Position numbers and translations under genes: made by a program. The notes beneath the pieces were generated by a model that was not told the DNA's origin, did no database searches, and worked only from the letters and a program-made list of their open reading frames with translations. Positions 217 through 60,060 of a stretch of 64,000 bases of DNA are shown one piece after another; positions within the stretch are counted from its first letter, which is position 1; each line of letters begins with the position of its first letter. Source of the DNA: a virus. Taxonomy: Duplodnaviria; Heunggongvirae; Uroviricota; Caudoviricetes. The stretch is from the IMG/VR virus record IMGVR_UViG_3300020721_000006. The stretch is one strand, 5' to 3'.

Positions 217-1515
217 ATGAAATTAAGAGAATTATTTGAAAGTTCAGTACTACTTGAATACGATAGAAACAAAACCGCATCCGTTTTTGGTAACAAATTA
301 GTTAATGCATTAATTAATGATAATGGTAGAAATAATAAAAATCTAATTGATTTACGTAATGAACTTACATCAGCAGAACAACTACAACCAAATGCGATAT
401 TAAAATCTGCTAATATTATATTAGCATTTATTGAAGATATTGATCCAACTACCCATAAAGAATATACTAGATGGTTATCTACTGTTTATGCCAATCAAGG
501 TATTAAATTTGAAGACCTTAACAGTAAAGGTAAAGATTGGTTGATAACATATACTAACTTAAAAAAGCATCGTATACTACCACCCGAATATAAAGACATT
601 GGAAGAATTACTTTTGATCAATTGGGTGATATTGCATTAAACAAAGAATTCCAAGAAAAGTTATCAGGTGCACAAACACCAACTGATAAAGGTAAATCTA
701 AAGAAATATATAATGATAAACAACTAACAATCATACAACCAGAAGATAAAACAAGTGCTTGTTATTATGGTCAAGGAACCAAATGGTGCACTGCTGCTAC
801 TAATAATAATATGTTTGATCAATATGCTGACGAGGGTCCATTATATATTATTATACCTAAACATCCACAATATGTTGGAGAGAAATACCAGTTACATTTC
901 GAAGCATCACAATTCATGGATGAACGTGATGAAGAAATTGATATTCAAGAATTGTTTTCTAGGTTCCCACAATTAAAAAAAGTGTTTAATCAATACAGAT
1001 ATATATTCAGTGTATATGACTGGTATGGGCACGAATTTATAGGTAAATATCAAAAAGAAAATCTTAGCAAATTTCAAGAAGCTATAAATGAAAAATATAA
1101 AGAACTTGGACAGAAATCAGTTGAAGAACTATTGAATATAACTCCAGAAGTGGTTGCACAAATACCCCATATCGAAACATATATTCATAGGTTATTGACA
1201 GAAGGGTTTTTAGCAAGAAAAATTTCAGCTATTGTTACTAACTTTTCGTTAGTGGCCGACAGCAACAACATGGAACATGCAGTTGATACAATGACACAAC
1301 GTGATGAAAAAATTGAACTTGGACATACCAATGATGATTATGAATTAGAAAAAAGTATATGGACTAACTTTAAAGATAATGTAGCTGCTATGTTATGGGA
1401 TCAATGGCAAGCAATGATTAAATTAAAGGTCCCATCAGTTAGTTTAAAAAATCATCAATTTTCAAAATTATTACTAAAAACAGCATTAGAAGCTATTGAA
1501 GGAATCAAGAAATGA
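217..1515 (+). CDS. hypothetical protein (~432 aa)
   Basis: long ORF; start taken at Met (MKLRELFESS) after upstream short ORF stop; stop overlaps next start as ATGA (1512-1515). Confidence 0.55.
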   Translation: MKLRELFESSVLLEYDRNKTASVFGNKLVNALINDNGRNNKNLIDLRNELTSAEQLQPNAILKSANIILAFIEDIDPTTHKEYTRWLSTVYANQGIKFEDLNSKGKDWLITYTNLKKHRILPPEYKDIGRITFDQLGDIALNKEFQEKLSGAQTPTDKGKSKEIYNDKQLTIIQPEDKTSACYYGQGTKWCTAATNNNMFDQYADEGPLYIIIPKHPQYVGEKYQLHFEASQFMDERDEEIDIQELFSRFPQLKKVFNQYRYIFSVYDWYGHEFIGKYQKENLSKFQEAINEKYKELGQKSVEELLNITPEVVAQIPHIETYIHRLLTEGFLARKISAIVTNFSLVADSNNMEHAVDTMTQRDEKIELGHTNDDYELEKSIWTNFKDNVAAMLWDQWQAMIKLKVPSVSLKNHQFSKLLLKTALEAIEGIKK

Positions 1516-3482
1516 AAATAATGGAAATATTAAGTGAAGCACCACTACCACCTGAATGGGATAAACAAGTTTATACACCAAATACTTCATATAAAAAACG
1601 TATAGAATACGCAGTAGCACGAGCTCAAAAACTTGGTAAAGGTAGCAGTAGAACTGTAGTTGAAATACCATATCAAGGAAGACAAACTGTTCTAAAAGTA
1701 GCACACAATGGTAAAGGCATGGCACAAAATGAAGCCGAAGCTGGAATACTAGATGATTGGTATGTGAAACAAAGTGGCTTAGTCATACCCATTATTGATT
1801 ATGATGAAGACCATTCCCAACCAGTATGGCTACATACCGAAAAAGCAGAAAAAGTAAATGCAAAACAATTGTGTCAACTATTAAGAACCAACGATCTATC
1901 TACACTAATTCGATATGCCAATATGATGGTTGGTAAAATTAGATATGAACAAACTTATATGGATAGAGTTATACAAACTATTACAGAACTATACGGTGAA
2001 GATGGTGCTGAGATATTTTCAGAATATGCTGGTAGTTTGGGTGACCTAGCAACAAATAATGATGTTGATCTTAGAGATTTTAATACACATAAAAATTGGG
2101 GTGTTTATAAAGGTGAGCCAGTTGTAATTGATATTGGTTTTACTAAAGACGTTGCAGCACAATATTATTCAGAAGAAATTGATGAAAGTGAACTAACAGA
2201 ATTATTTGATAATCCATTGCCATTTGAGTGGACAACTAAACTACCAAATGATAGATACGTAGCAAAATTTATGGTAGGGCATCATGAATATAGATTTTCT
2301 GCACATATGTTTCCATATGATGACTTGATGGGTGCTGAAATTGCATTCTGTATGATGGACAACGGTAAGTGTAGAACTGATAATACCGGAACAGGTAATG
2401 CCAACCAGATATATGCTACCGTAATTGAATTGATAAAACAAGTAGCAGATGCTGCAAATTTATCTAGAATAGCATATGATGCTGCTGATGATAAACGTAA
2501 GAGTATATACCCTACCTTAATTAAGAAAGCATTACCAGGATGGGAGTTATCAGAACACGAAGATGACTACTACTATTACGATAAACCAATTAAAGAAGAA
2601 CTTAATGAAGGTATAAGTTCAGTATTATACCATTATACTAGATTACATACTGCTGTTAAAATATTAAATGAAAATCGGTTTATATTGACTTCTAGTATTG
2701 GTAATAGATCTGAAGAAAAATTGATGCCAAAAGGTTACCCATATTACCTAAGCACTACAAGAACAAAAATGGGTGGATATCATCATACACCATATAATGG
2801 TGAGGTTATATTTAATTTAGATGGTGATTGGTATAACAAACGATATAAAGGTAATTCTGTTGATTATTGGGGTGATAGACATAATGACTACGGTAGAGTA
2901 AGTGAAGCTGAAGATAGAATTTTTAGTAAAACACCAACTATTCCAACAACTGGTATTACATCTATTCATGTATACTTAACACTAGATAAACAGTTACAGT
3001 TTTATACTGAAGACGTAAGACTATTATTCAGACTAGCAAAAACAAAAGGTATTCCAATATCATTATATAATGATCCTAAAGCATGGTTATTACAAGATCC
3101 AAAACGTGTTATTAGTATTTCTTCTATATTGTCATCATTAAAAACTAATGATAAAAAACCAAAACCTTATAGAGGTCAAAGTAGATTTCAACCAATGAAA
3201 GAAATACTAGAATTGATATATAAAAATTCTACTAGTCAATTAAGTAAAAATGCTGACAAATTAGTCTACAATCTACGATATTACAATGACACTATAAGTG
3301 GGTTAGAAACTGATATGTTTAATGCACGTAAACCATCGGATAGTGAACGTCCTTTTTTGGATAACTTAATCAAAGCTATGCGTGCTAATGGTTGGAATAC
3401 CACTGCTGATATGGGTAATGCATTAAAAGATAAATGGACAGAAATTCAGAAAAAAGAATATGAAATAAACAAGAAGGTATAA
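1512..3482 (+). CDS. large hypothetical protein (656 aa) with capsid-targeting-sequence-like N-terminus MKIMEILSEAP
   Basis: uninterrupted 1.97 kb ORF, ATGA coupling to upstream gene; no recognisable catalytic motif. Confidence 0.65.
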   Translation: MKIMEILSEAPLPPEWDKQVYTPNTSYKKRIEYAVARAQKLGKGSSRTVVEIPYQGRQTVLKVAHNGKGMAQNEAEAGILDDWYVKQSGLVIPIIDYDEDHSQPVWLHTEKAEKVNAKQLCQLLRTNDLSTLIRYANMMVGKIRYEQTYMDRVIQTITELYGEDGAEIFSEYAGSLGDLATNNDVDLRDFNTHKNWGVYKGEPVVIDIGFTKDVAAQYYSEEIDESELTELFDNPLPFEWTTKLPNDRYVAKFMVGHHEYRFSAHMFPYDDLMGAEIAFCMMDNGKCRTDNTGTGNANQIYATVIELIKQVADAANLSRIAYDAADDKRKSIYPTLIKKALPGWELSEHEDDYYYYDKPIKEELNEGISSVLYHYTRLHTAVKILNENRFILTSSIGNRSEEKLMPKGYPYYLSTTRTKMGGYHHTPYNGEVIFNLDGDWYNKRYKGNSVDYWGDRHNDYGRVSEAEDRIFSKTPTIPTTGITSIHVYLTLDKQLQFYTEDVRLLFRLAKTKGIPISLYNDPKAWLLQDPKRVISISSILSSLKTNDKKPKPYRGQSRFQPMKEILELIYKNSTSQLSKNADKLVYNLRYYNDTISGLETDMFNARKPSDSERPFLDNLIKAMRANGWNTTADMGNALKDKWTEIQKKEYEINKKV

Positions 3483-4859: not shown

Positions 4860-4867
4860 AATTTAAA

Positions 4868-4973
4868 ATTGCTTATTAATTAATTTATATGATAAATAAG
4901 TAATATTAAAGGAATAAAAAATTGCTTATTAATTAATTTATATGATAAATAAGTAATATTAAAGGAATAAAAA
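4868..4973 (+). repeat. perfect 2 x 53-bp tandem duplication carrying late-promoter-like GATAAATA box and AAAGGAATAAAAA RBS immediately upstream of the tail-fibre module
   Basis: copy 1 4868-4920, copy 2 4921-4973, identical; GATAAATA at 4891-4898 and 4944-4951; ATG at 4974. Confidence 0.9.
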
Positions 4974-5210
4974 ATGGCAACACAGATAGGAAATGGAAAC
5001 GTTCTTTTTGGTGATGGTAGTTCACAAACTTCGGCAACACCTACCGGAAATCCAGCAACTGGGCTTGGATTTGTCTATGAAAATTCACAATCTGTAACAC
5101 AAAATTACACAATGACTAGTGGTAAATCAGGTATGTCAACTGGTCCAATTACTTTTGGACCGGGAATAACAGTTACGATTCCTAGTGGCTCAAGATGGAT
5201 AGTATTATAA
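4974..5210 (+). CDS. small fibre-module protein (78 aa), Gly/Ser/Thr-rich
   Basis: ORF directly after late promoter/RBS; motif GNVLFGDGSSQTSATPTG typical of fibre N-termini. Confidence 0.45.
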   Translation: MATQIGNGNVLFGDGSSQTSATPTGNPATGLGFVYENSQSVTQNYTMTSGKSGMSTGPITFGPGITVTIPSGSRWIVL

Positions 5211-9672: not shown

Positions 9673-9798
9673 TGGAACAGGATGTTGACTATCACTGGTT
9701 GGAGCAAAACTGAAGCAAGATTAGTAAAAGCAATCCAAGAACTCAAAGCCATCATCGACACGCAAAACGCTCGTATAGAAGCACTGGAGGCTAAATAA
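9673..9798 (+). CDS. small coiled-coil protein (41 aa)
   Basis: ORF with TAATG overlap to fibre gene 9798; heptad-like KAIQELKAIIDTQNARIEALEAK. Confidence 0.3.
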   Translation, partial: WNRMLTITGWSKTEARLVKAIQELKAIIDTQNARIEALEAK

Positions 9799-10970
9799 TG
9801 GCTATCACGCTAAATGGAACAACTGGAATCACAACTCCAGGTTTATTAAATACAGGTACAGAAACTATTGTTGACCTTACAACATCGGGCAATACAATAC
9901 TAGGTGATGCTTCAACAGATACTCTCAATGTAGGTAATGGTGGTATTGTCAAAGATGCGTCAGGCAACGTGGGGATTGGGACGAGTTCGCCAACAACAAA
10001 ACTTACAGTCGCAGGTGCAATAACTATCACGGGTGGATTTGCGCTCAGAGGCTCATATAGTGCTGGTGCAATAAACTCAAACTTTGCGGCTGGAGATGGA
10101 GCTTTAACATCAAACACCACAGGCTACTCCAACACAGCTAGTGGGTTGGGCGCACTCCAGTACAACACCACAGGCTACTTCAACACAGCTAGTGGGGTGG
10201 GCGCACTCAACAACAACACCACAGGCATCTCCAACACAGCTAGTGGGTTGGGCGCACTCCAGTTCAACACCACGGGCAACTACAACACAGCTAGTGGGCA
10301 GAACGCACTCAACGCCAACACCACAGGCTACTCCAACACAGCTAGTGGGTTGGGCACACTCCAGTACAACACCACAGGCTACAACAACACAGCTAGTGGG
10401 CAGAACGCACTCTATACCAACACCACAGGCAGCTACAACACAGCCAGTGGGTGGAATGCGCTCCTATCAAACACCACAGGCAACTACAACACAGCTAGTG
10501 GGGCGGGCGCACTCAACAGCAACACCACGGGGTCAGGGAACTCAGCGTTTAATCCAATAAATTCAGCAGGTACTTATGCACCTGTGTTTAACCCAACCGT
10601 AGAAAACAATCGGTTCTGTATGGGTTCAACTGGGGTGACTAATGCCTATATTCAAGTCGCTTGGACAGTCGTATCTGACGCACGTGATAAAACGAATTTT
10701 GCTCCAGTCCCCCACGGCTTAGAGTTTGTTAATCAACTTAAACCTACTGCCTATCAGTTTAAGGAAAATAGAGAAACTGATATACCAACTGGTATTGTTA
10801 GATATGGTTTTAAGGCACAGGATATACTTGCTTTGGAAGGTGACACTCCTGTCATCATTGACAATGAGGATTTAGATAAACTTAGATTCAACTCTGATAG
10901 TCTTATCCCTGTATTGGTCAATGCAATCAAAGAACTCACTGCTCGTCTTGAGCTTTTGGAAGGAAAATAA
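9798..10970 (+). CDS. tail fibre protein with ~10 tandem NTTGxxNTASGxGAL repeats and C-terminal S74-type auto-chaperone domain
   Basis: N-terminal [17 protein letters not shown]; C-terminal SDARDKTNF ... VPHGLEFVNQLKP ... KAQDILALEG ... ELTARLELLE. Confidence 0.75.
   Translation: MAITLNGTTGITTPGLLNTGTETIVDLTTSGNTILGDASTDTLNVGNGGIVKDASGNVGIGTSSPTTKLTVAGAITITGGFALRGSYSAGAINSNFAAGDGALTSNTTGYSNTASGLGALQYNTTGYFNTASGVGALNNNTTGISNTASGLGALQFNTTGNYNTASGQNALNANTTGYSNTASGLGTLQYNTTGYNNTASGQNALYTNTTGSYNTASGWNALLSNTTGNYNTASGAGALNSNTTGSGNSAFNPINSAGTYAPVFNPTVENNRFCMGSTGVTNAYIQVAWTVVSDARDKTNFAPVPHGLEFVNQLKPTAYQFKENRETDIPTGIVRYGFKAQDILALEGDTPVIIDNEDLDKLRFNSDSLIPVLVNAIKELTARLELLEGK
10110..10535 (+). repeat. 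intragenic tandem repeats (~57-nt period, ~7-8 copies) inside fibre gene 9798
   Basis: repeated acaccacaggctac(t/a)(c/a)caacacagctagtggg...gcactc units visible directly. Confidence 0.7.
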
Positions 10971-15301: not shown

Positions 15302-15332
15302 TAATATTTCTCCGATAGTGTATTTATTGGTC

Positions 15333-30822: not shown

Positions 30823-31410
30823 TTATAATTTTAATTTTTTAAGATTAAATGGGAGGCGTCCTGGAACACATTCTTCTGGACAGGATGAGCTTAAGAAAGA
30901 ACGTTGTCCATTATTATACCATTTATAATTTTCTCGTGACTTAGTTCTTTGGGCAATTGCATCAGCCGGTTGTTGTTTTCCACGTTTTACTGCTGCATTA
31001 TTTTCTTTATGTTCCGCAGTTTGTGGTCCATAACGTTGCCCTTTCTTAACAGATGCCATATGCTGTTTGTATTCTGCAGTGCGAACTTTTCCAGAATTAG
31101 CAATTGATAATTTTTTAATAGTTTCAATAGAATGCTTACCACTATGACCAGCTTCTTCTTTAAGATTAGCCCATTCAGTGCTTTCAACTACATTCCATAA
31201 ATTACTATAATATAAACCCCATTCTTCAATTTCGCTCATGCTTTGACATTCTTTGAGAATTATTGTTTCAACATCATATCCATGTTTTTTGATGTGTAAT
31301 TTCCATTTAACTCCAGAACCTTTATAATTGTATGGGTCTGGTTTAGTTGTCATTCCTAAATATTTAAGGCCGGTTTTTCTATGTGTTTTTTGGTATAGAT
31401 AAATAATCAT
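30823..31410 (-). CDS. GIY-YIG homing endonuclease with NUMOD3 repeats
   Basis: IYLYQKTH ... KYLGMT nuclease motif; HSIETIKKLS and KHSxE-type repeats. Confidence 0.8.
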   Translation of the reverse strand: MIIYLYQKTHRKTGLKYLGMTTKPDPYNYKGSGVKWKLHIKKHGYDVETIILKECQSMSEIEEWGLYYSNLWNVVESTEWANLKEEAGHSGKHSIETIKKLSIANSGKVRTAEYKQHMASVKKGQRYGPQTAEHKENNAAVKRGKQQPADAIAQRTKSRENYKWYNNGQRSFLSSSCPEECVPGRLPFNLKKLKL

Positions 31411-34596: not shown

Positions 34597-35562
34597 TTAT
34601 TTTGGATGATTGCGATTATAAGTTTCTTTATATTTTAATCTTGACTGCAGTTTTTGTTCGGCGGTCCTACCACTTTTTGTTTGTTTTTCTTTCCGTTTTC
34701 GTTCATTCTCCTGTTCAGGAGTTCTAGCAGCATGAGAATTTTTTAGTTTTAGTGTTATTACTAATTTTTCTTCTGGTGTTTTAGCATCAAATGTAGCTTT
34801 GCGCTTTGCTATAATATCTAATTTTTCTTCTAACGGTTTTGCCTCGATGGTTGCTTTAAGTGTTGTTTTTTGTTTTTCTATTTGAGTTTGTTTTTCTTCA
34901 GGTGACCTAGCATTCTTTGTTTTCCATTCTTTTTGTTTAGTTTCCAATTTTTCTTCTGATGTTCTATTAATTTTAGCTAATCTTTGTTTTTCTTTCGTTG
35001 CTAATTTTTCCTCTGGAGATTTTGCATCTTCTGTAGCTTTTTTCTTTGCATTGACCAATAATCTTTCTGCTGGGGTTCTTGAAGTTTTTGCTAGTCGTTG
35101 CTTTTCTTTAATTGTATAGTTTTCTTCTGCACTTCTAGCTGCTTCTGTAGCTTTTTTCTTTTCTGCAATTAATGTTTTTTCATACAAACATTTAGCCTTT
35201 CTAGTTATTGCAGTTTTTGCAATAGAATCTTCAGTAGCATGAAATTTATTACCACCGTTATTTTTATTAAGCCAATATGGACTTTTCGCTGCATTAATTC
35301 TTGTTAAGAACTTATGTTCCCAAGCGACTGTATCTTTTCTAGTTTTAAATATTTTTCGTATTTGAACAGAAAATAATTCCTTGCCATGTAGAGCAATTAG
35401 ATTTTTTATTTCTTTTGATGATGTAAAATATGTCACCCAAAACTCAGTTGGATTTGCCACATTTTTTCTACTATTTGCATACCTACATCCGTAATAACGT
35501 TGGCCGGTTATTAGAAATGTTATGCAATATGTATACGGGACATAAATAAGTTTGTTGGTCAT
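34597..35562 (-). CDS. GIY-YIG-like endonuclease N-domain fused to long array of ~25-aa RTPEEKL/KEKQRLAK repeats
   Basis: N-terminus homologous to ORF 3569 (PYTY ... TGQ.YYG ... WEHK ... WLNKNNGG). Confidence 0.65.
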   Translation of the reverse strand: MTNKLIYVPYTYCITFLITGQRYYGCRYANSRKNVANPTEFWVTYFTSSKEIKNLIALHGKELFSVQIRKIFKTRKDTVAWEHKFLTRINAAKSPYWLNKNNGGNKFHATEDSIAKTAITRKAKCLYEKTLIAEKKKATEAARSAEENYTIKEKQRLAKTSRTPAERLLVNAKKKATEDAKSPEEKLATKEKQRLAKINRTSEEKLETKQKEWKTKNARSPEEKQTQIEKQKTTLKATIEAKPLEEKLDIIAKRKATFDAKTPEEKLVITLKLKNSHAARTPEQENERKRKEKQTKSGRTAEQKLQSRLKYKETYNRNHPK

Positions 35563-46518: not shown

Positions 46519-47031
46519 ATGGATTGTTTATTACTAAATGCATCAGGAATGCCTGTTAGTATAATGCCACTCAGCACTATATCATGGCAGGATTCAATAA
46601 AATATATGGTTTTAGAAAAAGCCGATGTTGTGCTGTGGCACGACAATTGGACCATTCGCTCTGCAAATTGGAAAACTAATGTCCCAGCTGTTCTAATGCT
46701 CCGTGAATATTTAAAACCAAAAACTACAGTAAAATTTAGTCGGGCAAGTTTACTGGTAAGAGATGATGGAATATGTCAATACTGCGGAACTACACTTAAT
46801 TTAAAAACTGCTACAATAGATCACGTTATCCCATCATCAAAAGGTGGAAGAACTAGTTGGAATAATTGTGCACTGTCATGTTCAAAATGTAATTCGGAAA
46901 AGGGAAATTCCTATCCATGGAAGAGCCCATATAATACTCCTTATAAACCTGATTATTTTGAATTAGTAAACAAACGTAAGAAATTTGGTTTTGAAGTTAA
47001 ACATAAGGAATGGTTACATTATATTTTTTAA
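46519..47031 (+). CDS. HNH endonuclease
   Basis: CQYCG ... IDHVIP ... [17 protein letters not shown]. Confidence 0.75.
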
Positions 47032-47808
47032 CGTATCTGATACAGTTTCTGGTGTCCTAAGCCAGAAAGTATATCCAGCAAACTTTCCTTTTTGTATAAT
47101 TTCCCCATCATACTTGTTAATAAGACAATAAATATTTCGTGCTTTAGCACCTATATTTGATGCAAAATCTGGTAGTGATATAAAAACATTAATATTTCCT
47201 TTTGGATCTTTTACAATTAATTTTTTACATTGTTCTCTAGTTTTTTCGTTTCCAATTTTACCGTGTAGTGCCAATTTATTTCTTTCATCGGAATTTAAAA
47301 ACCGTTTGGATTGTGCATTAGAGCAAGTAGCTTTATATATATCCGACATAAATTTTCCTTTATTTTTTGATGGTCTTCCTTTCATAGCTAATGATAATTT
47401 TAGATTTTTTCTGCCTGTATTAGCAAGTCTTGTTTTTTCCACTGCTTCTCTAGGCATTATTCTTCCTGTACATATTTTGGACATATGTATTTTATATTCT
47501 TCGGTATGTTTATATCCATGAGCACCTTCACCACCATCAGTTAGATTTCTTAAAATACCAGTTCCATTATTTTTCCTACCATACCATCGAATTACTCTAC
47601 GTTCAATTGCAAATGCTCCAATACTACTTAAATTTGATTCAATAATAACTATTCGTTTTTTATCAGTTGGGACTTTTACAGTATGGTCATTTGAGAAAGC
47701 TCGATAACCAGTTCCCTTGCCAATATAGTAAGGGGTTCCATCTTTTTTACGAAGATATGCGTATACATAAAATCTAAAAATAGGATCGTTGTTTGTATAA
47801 ATATTCAT
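47014..47808 (-). CDS. GIY-YIG homing endonuclease with NUMOD3 repeats
   Basis: FRFYVYAY ... PYYIGKGTG; [11 protein letters not shown] etc. Confidence 0.8.
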
Positions 47809-47876
47809 GTTGATACTCCTTCAAAGTATTAAAGTAGTTAGATGTTGACGCATCGTGAACTACATCTTTATTTATT
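47809..47876 (-). promoter_or_regulatory. HEG leader module: AATAAATAAAG late box + hairpin GTAGTT ... AACTAC + GAAGGAG RBS
   Basis: conserved architecture. Confidence 0.5.
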
Positions 47877-49699: not shown

Positions 49700-49942
49700 T
49701 ACTGCAGTTAACGCATTTATTAAGTCTTCAATCAGTAATTCTTTATCAGTGAACGGATCAGATACCCATATAGTTTCTATAAATTCTTTGCCATGTTTTT
49801 TATAGTGTTTCTTCCAATATGTGCCGGACCCTAGATACTTATAAGGATCAGATTCTGTAGTTTTACCAAAATATTTAAGACCTGTTATTGAATGTTTTTT
49901 AATATAAAGATATGTTGGTGGTATTTCTGTATAAATACACAT
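49667..49942 (-). CDS. short free-standing GIY-YIG nuclease domain (no DNA-binding tail)
   Basis: CIYTEIPP ... LYIKKH ... KYFGKTT motif; real ATG at 49942, ORF-track start is TTG. Confidence 0.55.
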   Translation of the reverse strand: MCIYTEIPPTYLYIKKHSITGLKYFGKTTESDPYKYLGSGTYWKKHYKKHGKEFIETIWVSDPFTDKELLIEDLINALTAVLSHSFSGDCN

Positions 49943-50010
49943 GCTGATGTCCTCCATAGACGTTAGAGTAGTTGGGAACGTCAATTCCGTGAACTACATC
50001 TTTATTTATC
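49943..50010 (-). promoter_or_regulatory. HEG leader module: GATAAATAAAG late box (overlapping hemA stop codon) + hairpin GTAGTT-CACGGAATTGACGTTCCC-AACTAC + GGAGG RBS
   Basis: conserved architecture. Confidence 0.5.
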
Positions 50011-51839: not shown

Positions 51840-54524
51840 ATGTCAATAAGAAAAATTAGAGCAGGACGTATTCCAACTATTTCAGCAAATGAATATATTG
51901 GTGAACGTGGAACTATATTTTGGAATGAAGATACTGGTGAACTACGCTTAAGTGATGGCATTACACCAGGTGGAAATACAGTTATTGTTGGATTTGCGTC
52001 CGAGCAAATAGCAGGAAGTGTAAAACCAGGTGGTGGATTTACTGTTTCAGCCGATGCAACACTTAGTTTGAATGTTGGATCAATGTTTGAATTAGATATA
52101 AACAATGTATTTCAGCTTAAACCTGCCACTTCTTCACAATTGGGTGGCATTAAAGCAGGTCCTGGTATCGAAATTGCATCCGATGGCACGTTACTTATTG
52201 ATAGCGCTGGTCTAAGTTTTAGTTTTGGTGATTTTTATGCATCAGGAAATAATTTTTCAACTGTTAATTTAAATGAAGATGTGAACATCGTATCAAATGG
52301 TACTGGAACTGTTAACATAGTTGGTAATTTTTCAGTTTATAAAACAGACGATACGGTAGCAGGTGCTGAAGCGGTAAGTCCGATTTTTCATATTAGTGGA
52401 GATGGACAAATACAAATGTTAGTTCCATCTGCAGACCAAAATACTGGTGCATTAGAAATAGTTGGTTCATTAGATGGTGTCTATCAAATTCCAGTTAATA
52501 CAGGTGTAATGCTACATATAACAGGTATACCACCCCAAGGAGGAATAGCTACACCGAGTCGTTTATATAACGATGCCCAAGGTTCATATGCATTATATGC
52601 TGGAAGAAGATATAATGGAACAGCGGTGTCACCATTGCCTGTATTAGCAAATGAACCACTTGTAAGATATGCTGGGGTTGGCTATGCTAGTGGTGGTTGG
52701 CCAGGATTTGGGCCAGCTAGAATGGAAATTAATGCTGGTGAAAATTTAACTAATACTAATCAAGGTGGATATTTAACATTCTATGCTACACCAAATGGTC
52801 AAATTGCAAGTACAAATAATACTAAATTAGTTGCTAGAATGGATACTACCAGCGGTATTGTATCATCTAAATTAAATGTTGTAAATTATACCGTTATCAA
52901 TGGGCATTTAAATGCAGTTCCTCTGGTTATTAACGTATCTGGTGCAAGTGGAACAGCAGGAACTGCTACATTAACTTTTTCAACACAACCATTCCCACCA
53001 TTCTTGGTAGGTGGAAAAATTACTGTTTCTAGTATGAATCCAGCAGGATACAATGCGAATTCGGTGACAGTTACTGCATGTACAACGACATCAGTAAGCT
53101 ATAGTAATGCCACTACCGCAACATTTGTTGCTGGGGGAATTATAACTGGATTGGATACTATTGTTCTTAATTCTGGATTGGTTGGTGCAATTGATAATAT
53201 TAACATCGGAACATCAACTCCTGGCACTGGTGCTTTTTCTGCATTATCTGCATCAAATGTCTCATCATCTACTGGAGTAGTTTCACTAGGAACATTTGCT
53301 GGCTCATTCACCGATGGCGTAATCATCGATTATGCAAATAGCATAGGTCGTATTAGTGTAGGAGACAATGATGGAATTACATTTTATAAAAGTGCAAATA
53401 CAACTAGAGCAGCATTACTAGCAATAAATTCAAATGGAAATTTAACATTATCTGGAAATACATTAACTATATCAAATGCAACATGCTATATAGTTAATAC
53501 AACTGCAACAACTGTTAATTTTGCTGGTGCAGCTACCACATTGAACATTGGAAATTCTAGTGGCACTACTACAATATCTGGTAATTTATCTGTTTCTAAT
53601 ACCATATCTGGTAGTGTTAGTGGCAACGCTGGAACTGCGACTAAACTGGCAACAACAACTAACATAAATGGAGTTAGTTTTGATGGATCGTTGTCTTCAT
53701 ACACATTAACAGCTGCAGCAGGAACCTTAACAGGAACTACCTTAAATTCAACCATAGTAAATAGTAGTTTAACAAGTGTTGGAGCATTAACTAGTGGTAG
53801 TATAGGTTCTGGATTTACTGCAATACCTAACTCAGCGTTAGCACATAATAGTACAACTATAGGTACTACTGCGATTAGTTTAGGTAGTTCAAGTACAACA
53901 TTAAGTGGTATGTCTAGTATAACATTTGCTGGTGCAACTAGCGGAACTTCATTATTACAATCTCAAGCAATCGCTGCAACAACAACATTTACTTTACCAT
54001 CAACTACCGGTACATTAATAGGTACAGGCGATACTGGCACAGTATCTAATTCTATGCTATCACATAGCACAATTTCTGGAGTTGCTTTAGGTAATAACTT
54101 AAATTCTTTAACAACAGGATTTGGATTACAATTATCTTCAGGAACAACATATAATGGTAGTTCATCTCTTACATTAAATAAATATTACACAATAACTGGA
54201 CCAGTATCTATAGTATCTAATGCTTATGCGTTAGACTTAGGAACAGCAAATGGTGTTGTTATTTTAGATAACGCTGGTGCTGCATTTACTATTACTATTT
54301 CTAATCCGCTAGCAGGTAGAAATATTCGTGTATTAGTTACATCATTAAAAGGAAATCCAGTAATTACTATTAGTGGATTATCTGCGTCAAATAGTAGTAA
54401 TGGAACACTTACATTCACTTCAAATTATGGTCCAGGTACTACTACATTTGCATTAATTGAATTCATTTGTACCTCTAGTGCTCTGTCTGGGGTTTATATG
54501 AATATATCTGGTGGGGCTAAATAA
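51840..54524 (+). CDS. large fibre-like structural protein (894 aa)
   Basis: N-terminal IRKIRAGR ... GERGTIFWNEDTGELRLSDG domain homologous to N-terminus of fibre ORF 62664; long S/T/G/N-rich beta-rich body. Confidence 0.65.
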   Translation: MSIRKIRAGRIPTISANEYIGERGTIFWNEDTGELRLSDGITPGGNTVIVGFASEQIAGSVKPGGGFTVSADATLSLNVGSMFELDINNVFQLKPATSSQLGGIKAGPGIEIASDGTLLIDSAGLSFSFGDFYASGNNFSTVNLNEDVNIVSNGTGTVNIVGNFSVYKTDDTVAGAEAVSPIFHISGDGQIQMLVPSADQNTGALEIVGSLDGVYQIPVNTGVMLHITGIPPQGGIATPSRLYNDAQGSYALYAGRRYNGTAVSPLPVLANEPLVRYAGVGYASGGWPGFGPARMEINAGENLTNTNQGGYLTFYATPNGQIASTNNTKLVARMDTTSGIVSSKLNVVNYTVINGHLNAVPLVINVSGASGTAGTATLTFSTQPFPPFLVGGKITVSSMNPAGYNANSVTVTACTTTSVSYSNATTATFVAGGIITGLDTIVLNSGLVGAIDNINIGTSTPGTGAFSALSASNVSSSTGVVSLGTFAGSFTDGVIIDYANSIGRISVGDNDGITFYKSANTTRAALLAINSNGNLTLSGNTLTISNATCYIVNTTATTVNFAGAATTLNIGNSSGTTTISGNLSVSNTISGSVSGNAGTATKLATTTNINGVSFDGSLSSYTLTAAAGTLTGTTLNSTIVNSSLTSVGALTSGSIGSGFTAIPNSALAHNSTTIGTTAISLGSSSTTLSGMSSITFAGATSGTSLLQSQAIAATTTFTLPSTTGTLIGTGDTGTVSNSMLSHSTISGVALGNNLNSLTTGFGLQLSSGTTYNGSSSLTLNKYYTITGPVSIVSNAYALDLGTANGVVILDNAGAAFTITISNPLAGRNIRVLVTSLKGNPVITISGLSASNSSNGTLTFTSNYGPGTTTFALIEFICTSSALSGVYMNISGGAK

Positions 54525-54931
54525 TGAAAATAAGAGAAATAATTAACGAAGGGTTAGCGCAAGATAAAGCAAATTTAATAATTAAAAAATTTATACAGTT
54601 TGCACAAGACCATTTAGAGTTAGCTGAATTACCTTCTATTTCTCTAAACACTAATTCACACATAAGTATTGAACATAAATCATTTGGTGGATATAGTCCA
54701 TCTGATAAAAGTATTAATGTTATGATGTCTAATAGACATATACAAGACGTGCTTCGTACAATTGCACATGAACTTACGCATTATAAACAAGATCTAAATG
54801 GTGAATTAAATGCGGATAGTGGCAAAGATGGTAGCCCACAAGAAAATTCTGCAAATTCTACTGCAGCTATAATCCTTAGAAAGTGGGGTAAATTACACCC
54901 AGAATTATTTGGATATGAGGCTATAGAATGA
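54524..54931 (+). CDS. HExxH motif protein (metallopeptidase-like) with CTS-like N-terminus MKIREIINEG
   Basis: IAHELTHYKQ zinc-binding-like motif; TAATG coupling to fibre gene. Confidence 0.45.
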   Translation: MKIREIINEGLAQDKANLIIKKFIQFAQDHLELAELPSISLNTNSHISIEHKSFGGYSPSDKSINVMMSNRHIQDVLRTIAHELTHYKQDLNGELNADSGKDGSPQENSANSTAAIILRKWGKLHPELFGYEAIE

Positions 54932-54957
54932 AAAAAGGCCCGTTAAGGGCCTTTTAC

Positions 54958-55206
54958 TTATTTCTTACCTACAAATTCATTCATGCTATTTGCAATATCA
55001 AGAACTTTTTCAATGGTTGGAAAATCTGGTCTGTCTGGTGGAATAGTAAATCTATCTAGTTGTTCTAGCATCAAATATAGTTCATACTCTCTAAATCGTG
55101 CATTAAAATCACTTATTGCTAAATCTTTAGACATTGCTAGTATATCAGTTCTGATATCATAACCCGTTTTACCACTTGTTTTTACTTCCCTGCTTTGTAA
55201 TGACAT
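54958..55206 (-). CDS. hypothetical protein (82 aa)
   Basis: ORF, AAGGAGAATATT RBS. Confidence 0.4.
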   Translation of the reverse strand: MSLQSREVKTSGKTGYDIRTDILAMSKDLAISDFNARFREYELYLMLEQLDRFTIPPDRPDFPTIEKVLDIANSMNEFVGKK

Positions 55207-55281
55207 AATATTCTCCTTGTGTTCTTTAATTAAATAGTAAAAATGATATTATAGTATATTTTGTTATGGTTGTCAAGTCTC

Positions 55282-55289
55282 TATAAATA
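55282..55289 (+). promoter_or_regulatory. TATAAATA late-promoter box 6 nt upstream of tnpB ATG
   Basis: exact T4-type late -10 consensus. Confidence 0.4.
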
Positions 55290-55295
55290 ATTTAA

Positions 55296-56576
55296 ATGAA
55301 AACAATAATTAAATCAAGTCAACATAATATCAAATTTGCTAATATTGGTAAACAACTGATATTAAAAGAATTCATTACCGAATATGATCGGGTATTGTGG
55401 TGGTTTGTTGATTATTTATGGAATAATAAAATCATTTGGGGCAATAATAGAACTTTAGATATCAAAAATAATAAATTAGATGTTCCAAGTTTTATTTCTA
55501 CCACTGATATCGATTTAATTACCGATCTTTCAGCAAGGGCAATTAAATTAGCGTCAGGGGAAGCTCTGGCAATTATCAAAAGTAGAACAGAAAAACGAAG
55601 AAAACAATTATTTGTTCTCGCTAAACAAATGCGTGCTGGTGATAAATCTATTTCAAAATTACAATCAAAAATTGATAGTAATCCATTATCAAAACCAACA
55701 CGAAATAGCAATAATTTAGTAGCAAATTTGGATAGTAATTGCTGTAAATATATCCCAGATACCACTGGTATCTTTGATGGATGGCTGAAATTATCATCAC
55801 TTGGTAAAAGGTATGGACATATTTATATACCAATTAAAACAACAAGGCATTCAAATCAATTAGCCAAGAAAGGTTATAAAATGATTACTAGTTGGCAGAT
55901 TTCTACTAACACTTTATATTCCAGATGGGAAACTACACGAGAGAAATCAACTGGTAGTAAAATCATTGGTGCAGACCAAGGATATGTTACTTGCTTATCA
56001 TTAAGTGATGGACAAACAACTAGTGCTGATATGCATGGTCATGATTTACATAGTATAATCAATAAGTTATCATATAAAAAGAAAGGCAGTAATGGCTTTA
56101 AACGAGTACAGGAACACCGAACAAATTATATCAATTGGTCCATAAATCAATTGGATTTATCAAATATAAAAGAACTCAGATTAGAAAAGTTATTTCAAAT
56201 GAGAAAAGGTTCTAATATGGGAAGAAATTTAAGTCATTGGACTTATACACAAATCAATGCACAGATAATGAAGCGATGTGAAGAACTGGGTGTCCCAGTA
56301 ATCGAGCAATCGGCTAGTTATAGAAGTCAAAGATGTAGTGATTGTGGATGGACCCAAAAATCAAATAGGAAGGGAAAGGAGTTTATATGCAATCAATGTG
56401 GCGTATGCCATGATGCCGATATAAATGGCGCCCTAAATCATGAAGCCGACTTATATCGGCTCCCTGTTGGTTTTTGGCAGAACAAATTTAATATCAAGGG
56501 GTTCTATTGGACTTCTAGAATGGTATTAGATTTATCTGGTGCGGAGCTTATAGTCCCGCATGTACAAAATGTATGA
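55296..56576 (+). CDS. tnpB: TnpB (IS200/IS605 OrfB-type RuvC-like RNA-guided nuclease homologue), no adjacent tnpA
   Basis: RuvC-I IGADQGYVTC, Zn finger CSDCGW ... CNQCGVC, RuvC-III DADINGALN; 426 aa. Confidence 0.8.
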   Translation: MKTIIKSSQHNIKFANIGKQLILKEFITEYDRVLWWFVDYLWNNKIIWGNNRTLDIKNNKLDVPSFISTTDIDLITDLSARAIKLASGEALAIIKSRTEKRRKQLFVLAKQMRAGDKSISKLQSKIDSNPLSKPTRNSNNLVANLDSNCCKYIPDTTGIFDGWLKLSSLGKRYGHIYIPIKTTRHSNQLAKKGYKMITSWQISTNTLYSRWETTREKSTGSKIIGADQGYVTCLSLSDGQTTSADMHGHDLHSIINKLSYKKKGSNGFKRVQEHRTNYINWSINQLDLSNIKELRLEKLFQMRKGSNMGRNLSHWTYTQINAQIMKRCEELGVPVIEQSASYRSQRCSDCGWTQKSNRKGKEFICNQCGVCHDADINGALNHEADLYRLPVGFWQNKFNIKGFYWTSRMVLDLSGAELIVPHVQNV

Positions 56577-56677
56577 TTTATACAAACTGTATGTCTGTGA
56601 ATATATATTATACTAAATTATATAAAAATAGTCAAGATAATTTAATAATAAAATAAATACAGTATAAGGAACATCGG

Positions 56678-56932
56678 ATGAAAAAATCAACTCGCTCCAT
56701 ACTACAAGAATTAAGTGAAATTGGATTAAGTAGAGATACTAATCTAATAATAGAAAGTCGTGCTTCTAATATAATACAAAGTGCGATAAATCTAATTGAA
56801 CTAATTAAAGAAAACTACGATCCAGAAATCTCTGATGATTTAGAACGTAGATTCATCAATAGTATTAAATCAGGTGATACAACTAAATTCAAAAGGGGCC
56901 TTAAAAAACTACAAGAAAGTAAGAAAATTTAA
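56678..56932 (+). CDS. hypothetical protein (84 aa)
   Basis: AAGGAACATCGG RBS. Confidence 0.45.
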   Translation: MKKSTRSILQELSEIGLSRDTNLIIESRASNIIQSAINLIELIKENYDPEISDDLERRFINSIKSGDTTKFKRGLKKLQESKKI

Positions 56933-56939
56933 CTTTTTT

Positions 56940-56947
56940 GATAAATA
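56940..56947 (+). promoter_or_regulatory. GATAAATA late-promoter-like box
   Basis: 50 nt upstream of ATG 56998. Confidence 0.4.
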
Positions 56948-56997
56948 ATATTATAAACCTACAGAGTGTGGGTTGAAAAGCATATAGGAGAAAGATT

Positions 56998-57450
56998 ATG
57001 CCATCATTATTAGGAACAACAGGCATCGACGGAACAGTGAACACTGGCGTTGCTGCTAATTATTTAAAAACAAAACCAACTACACAACTTGGTACTCGTG
57101 CATTAGTATTTTTAAACATCACTTTGAGTGGTTCAGGTGCACCAGACTTAACTAAACAATCTGGTTCATCAGGTACTTATACTGACCCACAAAGTTATTT
57201 AACTACTCTAGTGCGTACAGTTCAGGGTTATGCTGAAATTTATGCAATCGGTACACCAACTGCAACTGATATTACTATTGCTATCGCTAGCAACACTGCT
57301 AATGATTCAGCTGATGGTAGTAACGTTTCTGATAGTTCTTGGGGTGATATCGAAGTAGCAGTATGGACTGCACTAGGTTCTTGGAATTCACCAATAGGAA
57401 CTAACGTTGTAGCTTCAGCTAAAAGCTTATCAGGTGCTACATTGGTTTAA
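56998..57450 (+). CDS. small S/T/G/A-rich protein (150 aa), probably abundant structural protein
   Basis: late box + strong RBS ATAGGAGAAAG + strong terminator directly downstream. Confidence 0.5.
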   Translation: MPSLLGTTGIDGTVNTGVAANYLKTKPTTQLGTRALVFLNITLSGSGAPDLTKQSGSSGTYTDPQSYLTTLVRTVQGYAEIYAIGTPTATDITIAIASNTANDSADGSNVSDSSWGDIEVAVWTALGSWNSPIGTNVVASAKSLSGATLV

Positions 57451-57518: not shown

Positions 57519-57935
57519 ATGATTTATAATTTATATACACTTGTAGATATCACACATACTGGACAATACCGTGCTGAACCTGGTAAGGAAGCTGCTCGAT
57601 GGAAAGAACAAAACTTCAATACCATCATCCAAACATTGGGTATTCGTTCTAATGTTTTCTATAGTATCAACCCAACTCTAGTAGAAGTAAAAGGAAAAGT
57701 TGTTGGGTTTAATACCAATGATATTATAAGAGTATGGAGATTTGATTTTGAATCTGAACGTGATTTTGTTTATGAAAAAGACGGTGATCCTGTTGGATTT
57801 CTTAAAGATGACTTTAATTTAGTTCCATATATCAATGGGTTAGATGAACTAATGGAACAAAAGTATGCAGTATTTGTGACTGAAGGTAAAGGTAAGAATA
57901 TAGTTTTTAACCATTTTCCGATAAATACACTATAA
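57519..57935 (+). CDS. hypothetical protein (138 aa)
   Basis: start at first ATG after terminator (ORF-track start is TTG). Confidence 0.5.
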   Translation: MIYNLYTLVDITHTGQYRAEPGKEAARWKEQNFNTIIQTLGIRSNVFYSINPTLVEVKGKVVGFNTNDIIRVWRFDFESERDFVYEKDGDPVGFLKDDFNLVPYINGLDELMEQKYAVFVTEGKGKNIVFNHFPINTL

Positions 57936-59615: not shown

Positions 59616-60027
59616 AGAACTAGCTCAATATTTTGATCAAGAACTACAAACAAAATTACCAATATCAATTTTGCCTAATGGTATGTTGATATATAAAGAT
59701 TATCTGGTTAAACAACTTCCTAATAATAAATGGGGAGTGTTTAATATAAACAGTAAAGATTTAAAAGATCAGTTTCATTTGAAAAGTTGTGCCCTTATAG
59801 CTGCCAAAGCATATAATCACAGATACTTTTACAAATGTAATGAAATTAAGGACTTGGATAACAGTTATTGGGCAAATTATAGCGATGTTATAGTATATAA
59901 AAGTATTATCAACAAAGTCACAGATGACCAGTATCCAATACTATTAACTAGATTAGAAGAAAGTGATTACAGAGCCAACAAAGTTAAGAATAAGATTTCT
60001 AAGTTGTTTAAACACACTTTTGTATAA
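59590..60027 (+). CDS. hypothetical protein (145 aa)
   Basis: ORF. Confidence 0.4.
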   Translation: MKNSKKTIRELAQYFDQELQTKLPISILPNGMLIYKDYLVKQLPNNKWGVFNINSKDLKDQFHLKSCALIAAKAYNHRYFYKCNEIKDLDNSYWANYSDVIVYKSIINKVTDDQYPILLTRLEESDYRANKVKNKISKLFKHTFV

Positions 60028-60030
60028 ATA
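60023..60030 (+). promoter_or_regulatory. TATAAATA late-promoter box
   Basis: 30 nt upstream of ATG 60061 with AAGGAA RBS. Confidence 0.45.
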
Positions 60031-60060
60031 CATTATAAATTATGTTTAAGGAATATTAAC

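Follow-up and report, generated by a model that had tools for sequence, protein, structure and literature searches.

The tnpB locus

The DNA analysed is a stretch of 64,000 nucleotides from a virus of the Caudoviricetes (IMG/VR record IMGVR_UViG_3300020721_000006), below called the window. It carries a tnpB gene within an IS607-type element of 1,368 bp that has lost its transposase gene, tnpA. Phage genes of this kind are usually annotated merely as "transposase", and the preliminary description of this locus had proposed a possibly domesticated TnpB of the IS200/IS605 family. Numbers such as L003 and L067 denote viral loci in the comparison set, and P0002 is a TnpB relative with 80% identity to the window protein. 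The element and its immediate borders contain the following features.

55221/55223-56588/56590: the whole element, 1,368 bp, delimited by comparison with empty sites and with L003
55219-55222, + strand: target-side tetramer GTGT, candidate target-adjacent motif (TAM); its core GT (55221-55222) is shared with the right end
55223-55295, + strand: left end (LE), 73 nt, fused straight to tnpB; placed by homology to L003
55296-56576, + strand: tnpB, encoding a predicted RNA-guided nuclease of 426 amino acids (aa), identified by domain, profile, alignment and fold matches
55974-55976, 56184-56186 and 56418-56420, + strand: codons of the RuvC triad D227, E297 and D375, placed by alignment
C347/C350/C365/C368 of the protein: zinc finger, CxxC...CxxC, between RuvC-II and RuvC-III
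56397-56590, + strand: predicted omega-RNA scaffold overlapping the 3' end of tnpB, based on fold z-score and covariation
56397-56400/56414-56417, 56444-56449/56456-56461, 56478-56493/56524-56538 and 56539-56546/56555-56561, + strand: scaffold helices (consensus pairs)
56539-56561, + strand: terminal stem-loop of the scaffold, with covariation across 39 family sequences
56584-56590, + strand: right-end terminal motif AAACTGT with the core GT at 56589-56590, where the homology to L003 stops
56591-56610, + strand: predicted guide, flanking phage DNA ATGTCTGTGAATATATATTA, the right half of the empty site

The TnpB protein

The open reading frame (ORF) at 55296-56576 had been described as a TnpB with RuvC motifs and a CxxC...CxxC zinc finger, and this is borne out by domain, alignment and fold. 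The product matches PF07282 (Cas12f1-like TNB, zinc ribbon) with an E-value of 1.3e-14 and 54.6 bits against a cut-off of 26.3, and the PHROG transposase families 12300 and 506. The NCBIfam model guided_TnpB gives 66.8 bits over residues 109-381 (273 residues), which is below its curated cut-off of 100, and the window protein is thus a divergent member. In an alignment of 40 family members D227 (GADQG), E297 (RLEKL), D375 (DADINGALN) and the four cysteines show little or no variation. None of the three catalytic residues is substituted in the window copy; a substitution would have counted against the preliminary description. E297 is found 50 residues ahead of the zinc finger; a glutamate about 50 residues ahead of it is the layout of prokaryotic TnpB and not of Fanzor (PMC13565253).

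An AlphaFold model of the protein has a pLDDT (predicted local distance difference test) of 89.6. Foldseek returned full-length matches to AsCas12f (8J12, E 4.7e-16), ISFba1 TnpB (8IAZ, E 1.4e-12, template modelling scores (TM) 0.51/0.55) and mimivirus Fanzor2 (9B0L, E 7.8e-10), and through these matches a WED-REC-RuvC-TNB fold is predicted. A profile search of PDB sequences agrees with Foldseek, and the top matches by both sequence and fold are Cas12f proteins. The fold and the motifs support placing the protein in TnpB despite the sub-threshold guided_TnpB score. Judged from sequence and model, the gene is a genuine and intact TnpB gene, and the RNA-guided nuclease activity of its product is predicted.

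An IS607-type element

The 714 homologues of the window TnpB are nearly all metagenomic. P0002 is preceded by an overlapping gene encoding a 194-aa protein with a resolvase domain directly 5' of tnpB (L003/L004). When this protein was used as a tblastn query, a serine-recombinase tnpA homologue ending at the tnpB start was found in 24 of the 47 non-redundant viral loci whose upstream flank could be read; the remaining 23 are solo, and a further six could not be scored. The assignment to IS200/IS605 is rejected, as the relatives pair with a resolvase, there is neither a Y1_Tnp at 45.5-64 kb nor an end hairpin outside the RNA scaffold, and the IS200_TnpB model NF038281 gives 33 bits where its cut-off is 425. 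On this comparative evidence the window element is of the IS607 type and not of the IS200/IS605 type.

No match to the relatives' serine recombinase was found by tblastn in the 64-kb window, and the precomputed Pfam lists for 45.5-64 kb contain no Y1 (HUH) or resolvase gene. Subterminal hairpins are likewise lacking at the element ends, outside the RNA scaffold. The statement that no HUH TnpA lies next to the gene was thus correct, but for an IS607-type element neither this absence nor that of end hairpins carries any information. With tnpA absent from the window and present in relatives, the window copy is a tnpA-deleted derivative. The preliminary description had also noted the lack of IS terminal features. 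This holds for the hairpins, while the left and the right end are both present. It had further named intact IS605 ends together with a nearby tnpA as the sign of an ordinary insertion; the ends have been found and are IS607-type, and there is no tnpA in the 64-kb window.

The family is represented by 58 loci in IMG/VR. A scan of 185,579 bacterial and archaeal species, one genome each, gave only five weak matches, all on contigs of metagenome-assembled genomes (MAGs), and the lineage is therefore essentially phage-borne. Bacterial genomes were considered as a source of the element and discarded, since these five matches give no clue to a host. Several phage contigs carry two to four family copies. 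One 289-kb IMG/VR phage contig holds four solo copies (L032, L035, L037 and L039) that are 84-90% identical, each with a left flank ...ATGT, a left end of about 125 nt and a right end that terminates in ...GACTGT. A tnpA is present in both L011 and L042, which share one contig, and the tnpB genes of L013 and L014 are 92% identical even though only L014 has a tnpA. The multi-copy solo elements and the L013/L014 pair indicate that transposase-less copies arise repeatedly and still multiply.

Element ends and loss of tnpA

The extent of the element is given by two blastn alignments to L003. On the left, window positions 55218-55277 correspond to L003 9345-9404, located 5' of tnpA (78%, E 2e-7), and the main alignment pairs window 55284-56591 with L003 9989-11296 (81%). 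Exactly 585 bp of L003, holding tnpA, are missing from the window copy. L003 carries the heptamer TAAATAA twice, just before the tnpA ATG and at the tnpA 3' end. A deletion between these two 7-bp repeats would account for the removal of tnpA and for the window sequence ...TATAAATAATTTAAATG. On the right the homology ends 14 nt past the tnpB stop codon, at ...ACAAACTGT, and the right ends of most family members read AACTGT or AACTCT. Judged by these alignments, the window copy is shown to retain both element ends.

The insertion site

Six related phage loci without tnpB (L067, L069, L070-72 and L075) provide the empty site. They share with the window the gene order 135-aa gene, 82-aa gene (minus strand), 84-aa virion protein, 150-aa gene, and in all six the gap between the 82-aa and the 84-aa genes is only about 107 nt. 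In blastn the alignment of the window to L069 breaks at 55222 and resumes at 56588, and that to L067 breaks at the same position and resumes only at 56650. The empty junction in the relatives is CTCCTGTGT|ATGTCTGTG, with the variant CTCCAGTGT|ATGTCTGTT in L070. The window reads CTCCTTGT-GT-(TCTTTAATT...CAAACT)-GT-ATGTCTGTG, the brackets enclosing the element. In L067, L069 and L070 the empty site already carries GTGT. The comparison of synteny that had been suggested earlier thus finds the element absent from six related loci, and by this comparison the tnpB unit is an insertion relative to the syntenic phages.

There are no terminal inverted repeats at the element ends and there is no target-site duplication, the junctions and the empty sites sharing GT only. 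One shared GT without duplication or inverted repeats is the pattern expected of a serine-recombinase exchange over a 2-bp core, for which a shared core dinucleotide is predicted (PMC6188088). Other family members have GTGT or GTCT before the left end, paired with CTGT or CTCT at the right end. In general a left tetramer GT-NN matches a right-end CT-NN, where NN stands for GT (about 12 loci), CT (about five) or CC (one); this matching was judged by inspection, and two to three cases are unclear. L047 and L055, two solo copies with 91% identity on one 126-kb contig, have GT on the left and AT on the right and break the rule. Canonical IS607 terminates in and inserts at GG (PMC6188088, PMC13565253), and the window core, GT, departs from this.

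The insertion point is a GT dinucleotide in the intergenic region ahead of the virion-protein gene, 15 nt upstream of the start codon of the minus-strand 82-aa gene and just past its AGGAG. The target is placed within the conserved 5' leader of a neighbouring gene, as is typical for homing sites. The composition of the element is like that of its surroundings. The exact TnpB protein is found on at least 23 contigs, at the same locus and in the same gene context throughout.

The phage DNA adjoining the insertion is mosaic. Window 54518-55222 aligns with L069 4995-5708, where the product of the 135-aa gene is 99% identical and that of the 82-aa gene only 59%. To the right of the 82-aa gene the DNA is 70-75% identical to L069, with a recombination breakpoint near a bidirectional terminator at 54933-54955.

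The predicted omega-RNA and its guide

An omega-RNA had been predicted at the 3' end of the gene, at about 56450-56680. A structured RNA does overlap the 3' end of tnpB, but the guide region stops at about 56610. The region 56380-56612 folds more stably than its shuffled versions (z = -3.77). Compensatory changes are found at five of the six pairs of the terminal hairpin among 39 family sequences, one pair for example being AU in 19 sequences, CG in 10, GC in six and UA in three. Among nine closer relatives there are 32 consensus pairs, with 95% of the cells paired and double changes at 10 of the 32. The covariation score is 0.378, to be compared with 0.186 for shuffled alignments (0 of 500 reach the observed value) and 0.02-0.08 for slid partners. 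The compensatory changes are located within codons (GCG/CCGCAT versus CAG/CCTGAC is one example), so the RNA structure constrains the protein sequence. All helices are intact in the window copy. The GCGG...CCGC hairpin first noticed at 56544-56563 is real and part of a covarying helix, but lies slightly further left, with its arms at 56541-56544 and 56556-56559. Folding and covariation thus show that the last approximately 190 nt of the element, up to its right end, form a conserved structured RNA. Rfam models (RAGATH-18 and the IS605-orfB types) gave only chance matches outside the element when 54900-57000 was searched at E-values up to 5.

It has been established that the omega-RNA of TnpB derives from the right end and its guide from the flank (PMC8612924, PMC10278001). 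As the scaffold stops at the right end, the guide would by this logic be 56591 to about 56610; the length of 20 nt is assumed from published TnpB systems (PMC8612924, PMC11061315). The predicted target is ...GTGT followed by ATGTCTGTGAATAT..., in short GTGT-ATGTCTGTGAATATATAT, and an insertion-free (naive) allele would read ...CTCCTTGTGTATGTCTGTGAATATATATTA.... The guide would be copied from ordinary flanking DNA. The one target that can be predicted is the same locus in its insertion-free form. No second copy of the guide or of the right-end hairpin motif is found in the window.

Promoters and the neighbouring gene

Three promoter-like features belong to the element and its borders.

55282-55289, + strand: TATAAATA box 6 nt ahead of the tnpB start codon; conserved in the element family, and a candidate promoter for a leaderless transcript
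55248-55276, - strand: outward sigma-70 consensus promoter in the left end, TTGACA-17-TATAAT (12/12), aimed at the 82-aa gene (54958-55206)
56607-56635, - strand: displaced original promoter of the 82-aa gene, TTGACT-17-TATAAT (11/12)

The box 6 nt before the ATG had been correctly noted, and had been read as the promoter of a leaderless late transcript. In seven relatives with tnpA (L003, L009, L011, L014, L015, L016 and L042) the tnpA start is preceded by [GCT]ATAAATA, 5 nt and the ATG, with no Shine-Dalgarno sequence. Its presence at a fixed spacing in front of seven tnpA-first elements makes the box a conserved part of the element. Its fixed spacing fits a transcript that starts at the ATG, and thus supports the leaderless part of the earlier claim. 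The tnpA deletion would then have put tnpB directly behind a conserved box inherited from the tnpA leader.

The late part has fared less well. The TATAAATA box is taken here to resemble the T4 late consensus, and it is from this resemblance that late timing of tnpB was deduced. The window has no excess of the octamer (11 observed, 16.7 expected), nor of ATAAATAC alone. What stands out is only a longer word, ATAAATACAnTAT, with four exact copies in the window, and eight copies when up to one mismatch is allowed (3.5 expected). It is a candidate late promoter of the window phage group. The tnpB box has the ATAAATA core in common with it, but not the ATAAATACAnTAT extension. Since the box stems from the element's own leader and lacks this extension, late expression is unproven. 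A PHROG scan of 27 window ORFs revealed no gp55-like late sigma factor.

The four exact copies of ATAAATACAnTAT, at 56653-56665, 57921-57933 and 60024-60036 on the plus strand and 15315-15327 on the minus strand, lie 14-30 nt ahead of four gene starts, those of neighbouring structural genes included. Five related phages have conserved the word ahead of their 84-aa virion gene.

When it comes to the 82-aa gene, the insertion has moved its original promoter 1.37 kb away; equivalents of the -35 and -10 boxes are found in the empty intergenic regions of L067, L069 and L070. The outward promoter in the left end, whose counterpart in L003 is weaker (TTGCAA-17-TAAAAT), may substitute for the displaced one, possibly as a compensatory change. 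The displaced promoter is now oriented antisense towards the right end and the guide-RNA region, and RNA made from it could damp TnpB early in infection.

A model for maintenance by RNA-guided homing

The starting points for an interpretation are the identity of the gene, its intact active site, the two ends, the loss of tnpA, the empty site and the conserved RNA structure, all of which are observed. The reading favoured here is that of a non-autonomous phage-borne IS607-like element which is probably, although by no means certainly, maintained or spread through RNA-guided cleavage of naive alleles carried by co-infecting phages. The ancestor would have consisted of a left end, tnpA encoding a serine recombinase, tnpB and a right end, and would have lost tnpA between the TAAATAA repeats. 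A single transcript from the box would give TnpB, which would trim the 3' part of the same transcript to an omega-RNA of about 190 nt whose final 16-20 nt or so are copied from the phage flank starting at 56591. The TnpB-RNA complex would cut DNA carrying ...GTGT followed by ATGTCTGTGAATAT..., that is, the insertion-free phage locus, while the occupied locus would be protected because its target is preceded by ...ACTGT instead of ...GTGT. A vacant site might come from a co-infecting close relative, or from excision by a TnpA supplied in trans. Repair of the break from the element-bearing genome would copy or retain the element and put the naive genome at a disadvantage. If close relatives are excluded, this would be a by-product of homing and no function in its own right. 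It is known that TnpB cuts the vacant site and drives retention of the element (PMC10055086, PMC10690162), and TnpA-independent spread has been found between the copies of a plasmid (PMC11870625). For co-infecting phages such spread is so far a theoretical proposal only (PMC13565253).

Several observations weigh against this model, in which we infer expression, RNA processing, the TAM, cleavage and homing. The search for a guide-complementary target, as advised in the preliminary description, did lead to the empty sites of relatives, but these match just the first 8-11 nt of the guide. A naive allele with a perfect match was not found; IMG/VR gave one unrelated chance match and two scans of JGI metagenome contigs gave none. 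The element looks fixed in the window phage lineage, and a present-day homing target is not on record. Of the last four bases, only one distinguishes the candidate TAM GTGT from the right-end terminus CTGT, which makes the rule for distinguishing self from non-self a guess. There is no Shine-Dalgarno sequence ahead of the tnpB ATG, so that translation hinges on an unproven leaderless start. The strong displaced promoter may in addition drive antisense transcription through the right end, the guide-RNA region and tnpB. Finally, the ratio of nonsynonymous to synonymous substitution (dN/dS) of tnpB against its relatives is 0.15-0.20; the purifying selection seen in this speaks for the model, although the values largely reflect the history of the family and not selection at the window locus.

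A wider version of the model sees a phage-restricted IS607-like lineage adapted to large lytic phages, by a leaderless late transcript from its own T4-late-like box, a non-GG core, a new omega-RNA, purely RNA-guided homing between co-infecting phages after the loss of tnpA, in the manner of a natural gene drive, and an outward promoter that repairs the disrupted gene. This is put forward tentatively, as a possibility that is rather doubtful in its entirety.

Alternative explanations

The alternative that survives best, though it is unlikely, is that the locus is an inert relic, an IS607-type insertion without transposase that is passively carried, its tnpB and RNA undecayed yet idle. The loss of tnpA, an ATG without Shine-Dalgarno sequence, the lack of a naive target in the public data searched (IMG/VR and JGI metagenome contigs) and the one fixed locus on all contigs with the exact protein are what a relic would give. 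However, the ORF is full-length with every catalytic residue and zinc ligand intact, the RNA helices are intact as well, and the deletion left tnpB exactly behind the conserved box. Moreover, about half of the scorable non-redundant viral loci are solo and some phage genomes hold several full-length solo copies, which is unexpected of dead elements.

Domestication, as first proposed, would mean that the phage keeps a late-expressed TnpB as a weapon against competitors or for genome processing. The nuclease is intact, the TATAAATA box has the ATAAATA core of the motif upstream of neighbouring structural genes, and several protein homing-endonuclease genes in the window make such competition plausible. 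But both IS ends are kept, syntenic relatives lack the insertion, and the family is mobile and multi-copy in other phage genomes. The box was inherited from the element and not from the phage. The guide equals the flank and matches nothing else in the window, known relatives match 8-11 nt of it only, and its sole predictable target, the naive allele, fits homing or exclusion of close relatives, the latter being a by-product of homing. A new role in genome processing fits less well, and domestication is not supported and is regarded as improbable.

There is a small chance that the element is still transposed in trans, by a serine-recombinase TnpA from a copy elsewhere in a phage genome of more than 200 kb or from the host, so that TnpB only performs restorative homing after excision. 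The intact left and right ends with their common GT core would allow this, and multi-copy contigs exist, both with tnpA (L011 and L042) and with four solo copies. On the other side, the 64-kb window holds no tnpA homologue. This explanation is also compatible with the homing model, from which it differs only in who makes the vacant site.

A nuclease-dead RNA-guided regulator of the TldR type, such TnpB-derived regulators being known from phages (PMC10705468), or a Cas12f-type CRISPR effector, as the top PDB sequence and fold matches might suggest, is highly improbable, because the RuvC triad is intact, unlike in TldR, and no CRISPR array is found in the 64-kb window, nor any other tandem array near the gene.

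Relation to known systems

The object itself is of an ordinary kind, a TnpB element of the IS607 family whose form is somewhat unusual and is resolved well. In IS607 of Helicobacter pylori and in ISFba1, whose TnpB has a RAGATH-18 right-end RNA (reRNA; 8IAZ), a serine-recombinase tnpA overlaps the tnpB start, as in the relatives of the window element. IS607-family elements also lack terminal inverted repeats and target duplication, with the same dinucleotide at both junctions (PMC6188088, PMC11061315). They likewise have the D-E-D triad with the glutamate about 50 residues before the zinc finger, and a guide RNA encoded at the 3' end. The window copy differs in lacking tnpA, in having a GT core (CT or CC in some relatives) instead of GG, and in its candidate TAM, which is ...GTGT where AGGAG or GAGGG is used in IS607. 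The reRNA downstream of tnpB in IS607 is of the RAGATH-18 type (PMC11061315). This type was not found here, the scaffold being almost wholly inside the ORF and without an Rfam match, and the window lineage is found almost only in phage contigs. The core, the scaffold and the phage-bound distribution are what is new here.

The TnpB of IS200/IS605 elements such as ISDra2 (8EXA, 8H1J) belongs to the same superfamily. Its omega-RNA comes from the right end and the flank and it cuts the vacant site (PMC8612924, PMC10055086), both of which are predicted for the window element, but the latter has no Y1/HUH TnpA or subterminal hairpins and the partner in its relatives is a serine recombinase. The free-standing homing endonucleases of T4-like phages (Seg, Mob and I-Tev) are also selfish nuclease genes between conserved phage genes, with a predicted action on the allele of a co-infecting relative and possible marker exclusion (PMC13565253). 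Here, in contrast, an RNA guide and a short TAM would recognise the target, and the insertion itself splits the target for self-protection. Also comparable are the TnpA-independent IS605 gene drive in multicopy plasmids (PMC11870625) and the tnpA-less IStrons with TnpB (PMC10690162), in which TnpB is kept without, or independently of, TnpA, and which spread by cutting the insertion-free homologous copy, as would the window element. The latter differs in that its replicon is a large phage of lytic type and in being IS607-type.

The locus is a fully delimited natural example, with an empty site, both ends, an exact tnpA deletion, a predicted guide and a candidate TAM. Transposase-independent homing of TnpB has been demonstrated for plasmids only and is theory only for phages, and the locus would make a test in phages direct. 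With this family comes an IS607-type clade of TnpB proteins, about 420-430 aa long, for which core and candidate TAM are not G-rich; together with a scaffold largely embedded in the ORF, this might be of interest for genome editing. It also calls for caution, as serine-recombinase relatives and empty sites should be checked before a solo TnpB is called "domesticated".

The host phage and other features of the window

The window has a GC content of 33% and encodes tail-fibre, virion and DNA-metabolism genes. A megablast search with 12 kb found no near-identical phage among GenBank phages, and matches at the protein level there reach at most 33% identity. Some of the contigs with the exact TnpB protein span 0.2-1 Mb, and as the context is the same, the host replicon is a large, probably jumbo, uncultured phage.

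This phage bears several protein-based selfish nucleases besides TnpB. The ORFs at 30823-31410, 34597-35562 and 47014-47808 (minus strand) and at 46519-47031 (plus strand) are one HNH gene and three that match PHROG family 314, a family of homing endonucleases. Between the 5' regions at 47794-47875 and 49928-50009 the identity is 75%. Repeats occur at two further places, a 51-nt unit repeated about eight times (10113-10528) in a tail-spike-like gene at 9798-10970, and a perfect intergenic 53-nt tandem duplication at 4865-4975. Among the related loci, L045/L059 has a large degenerate repeat block at 750-3300, in which the repeats are 65-80% identical and offset by multiples of about 69 nt, just upstream of an IS607-type element.

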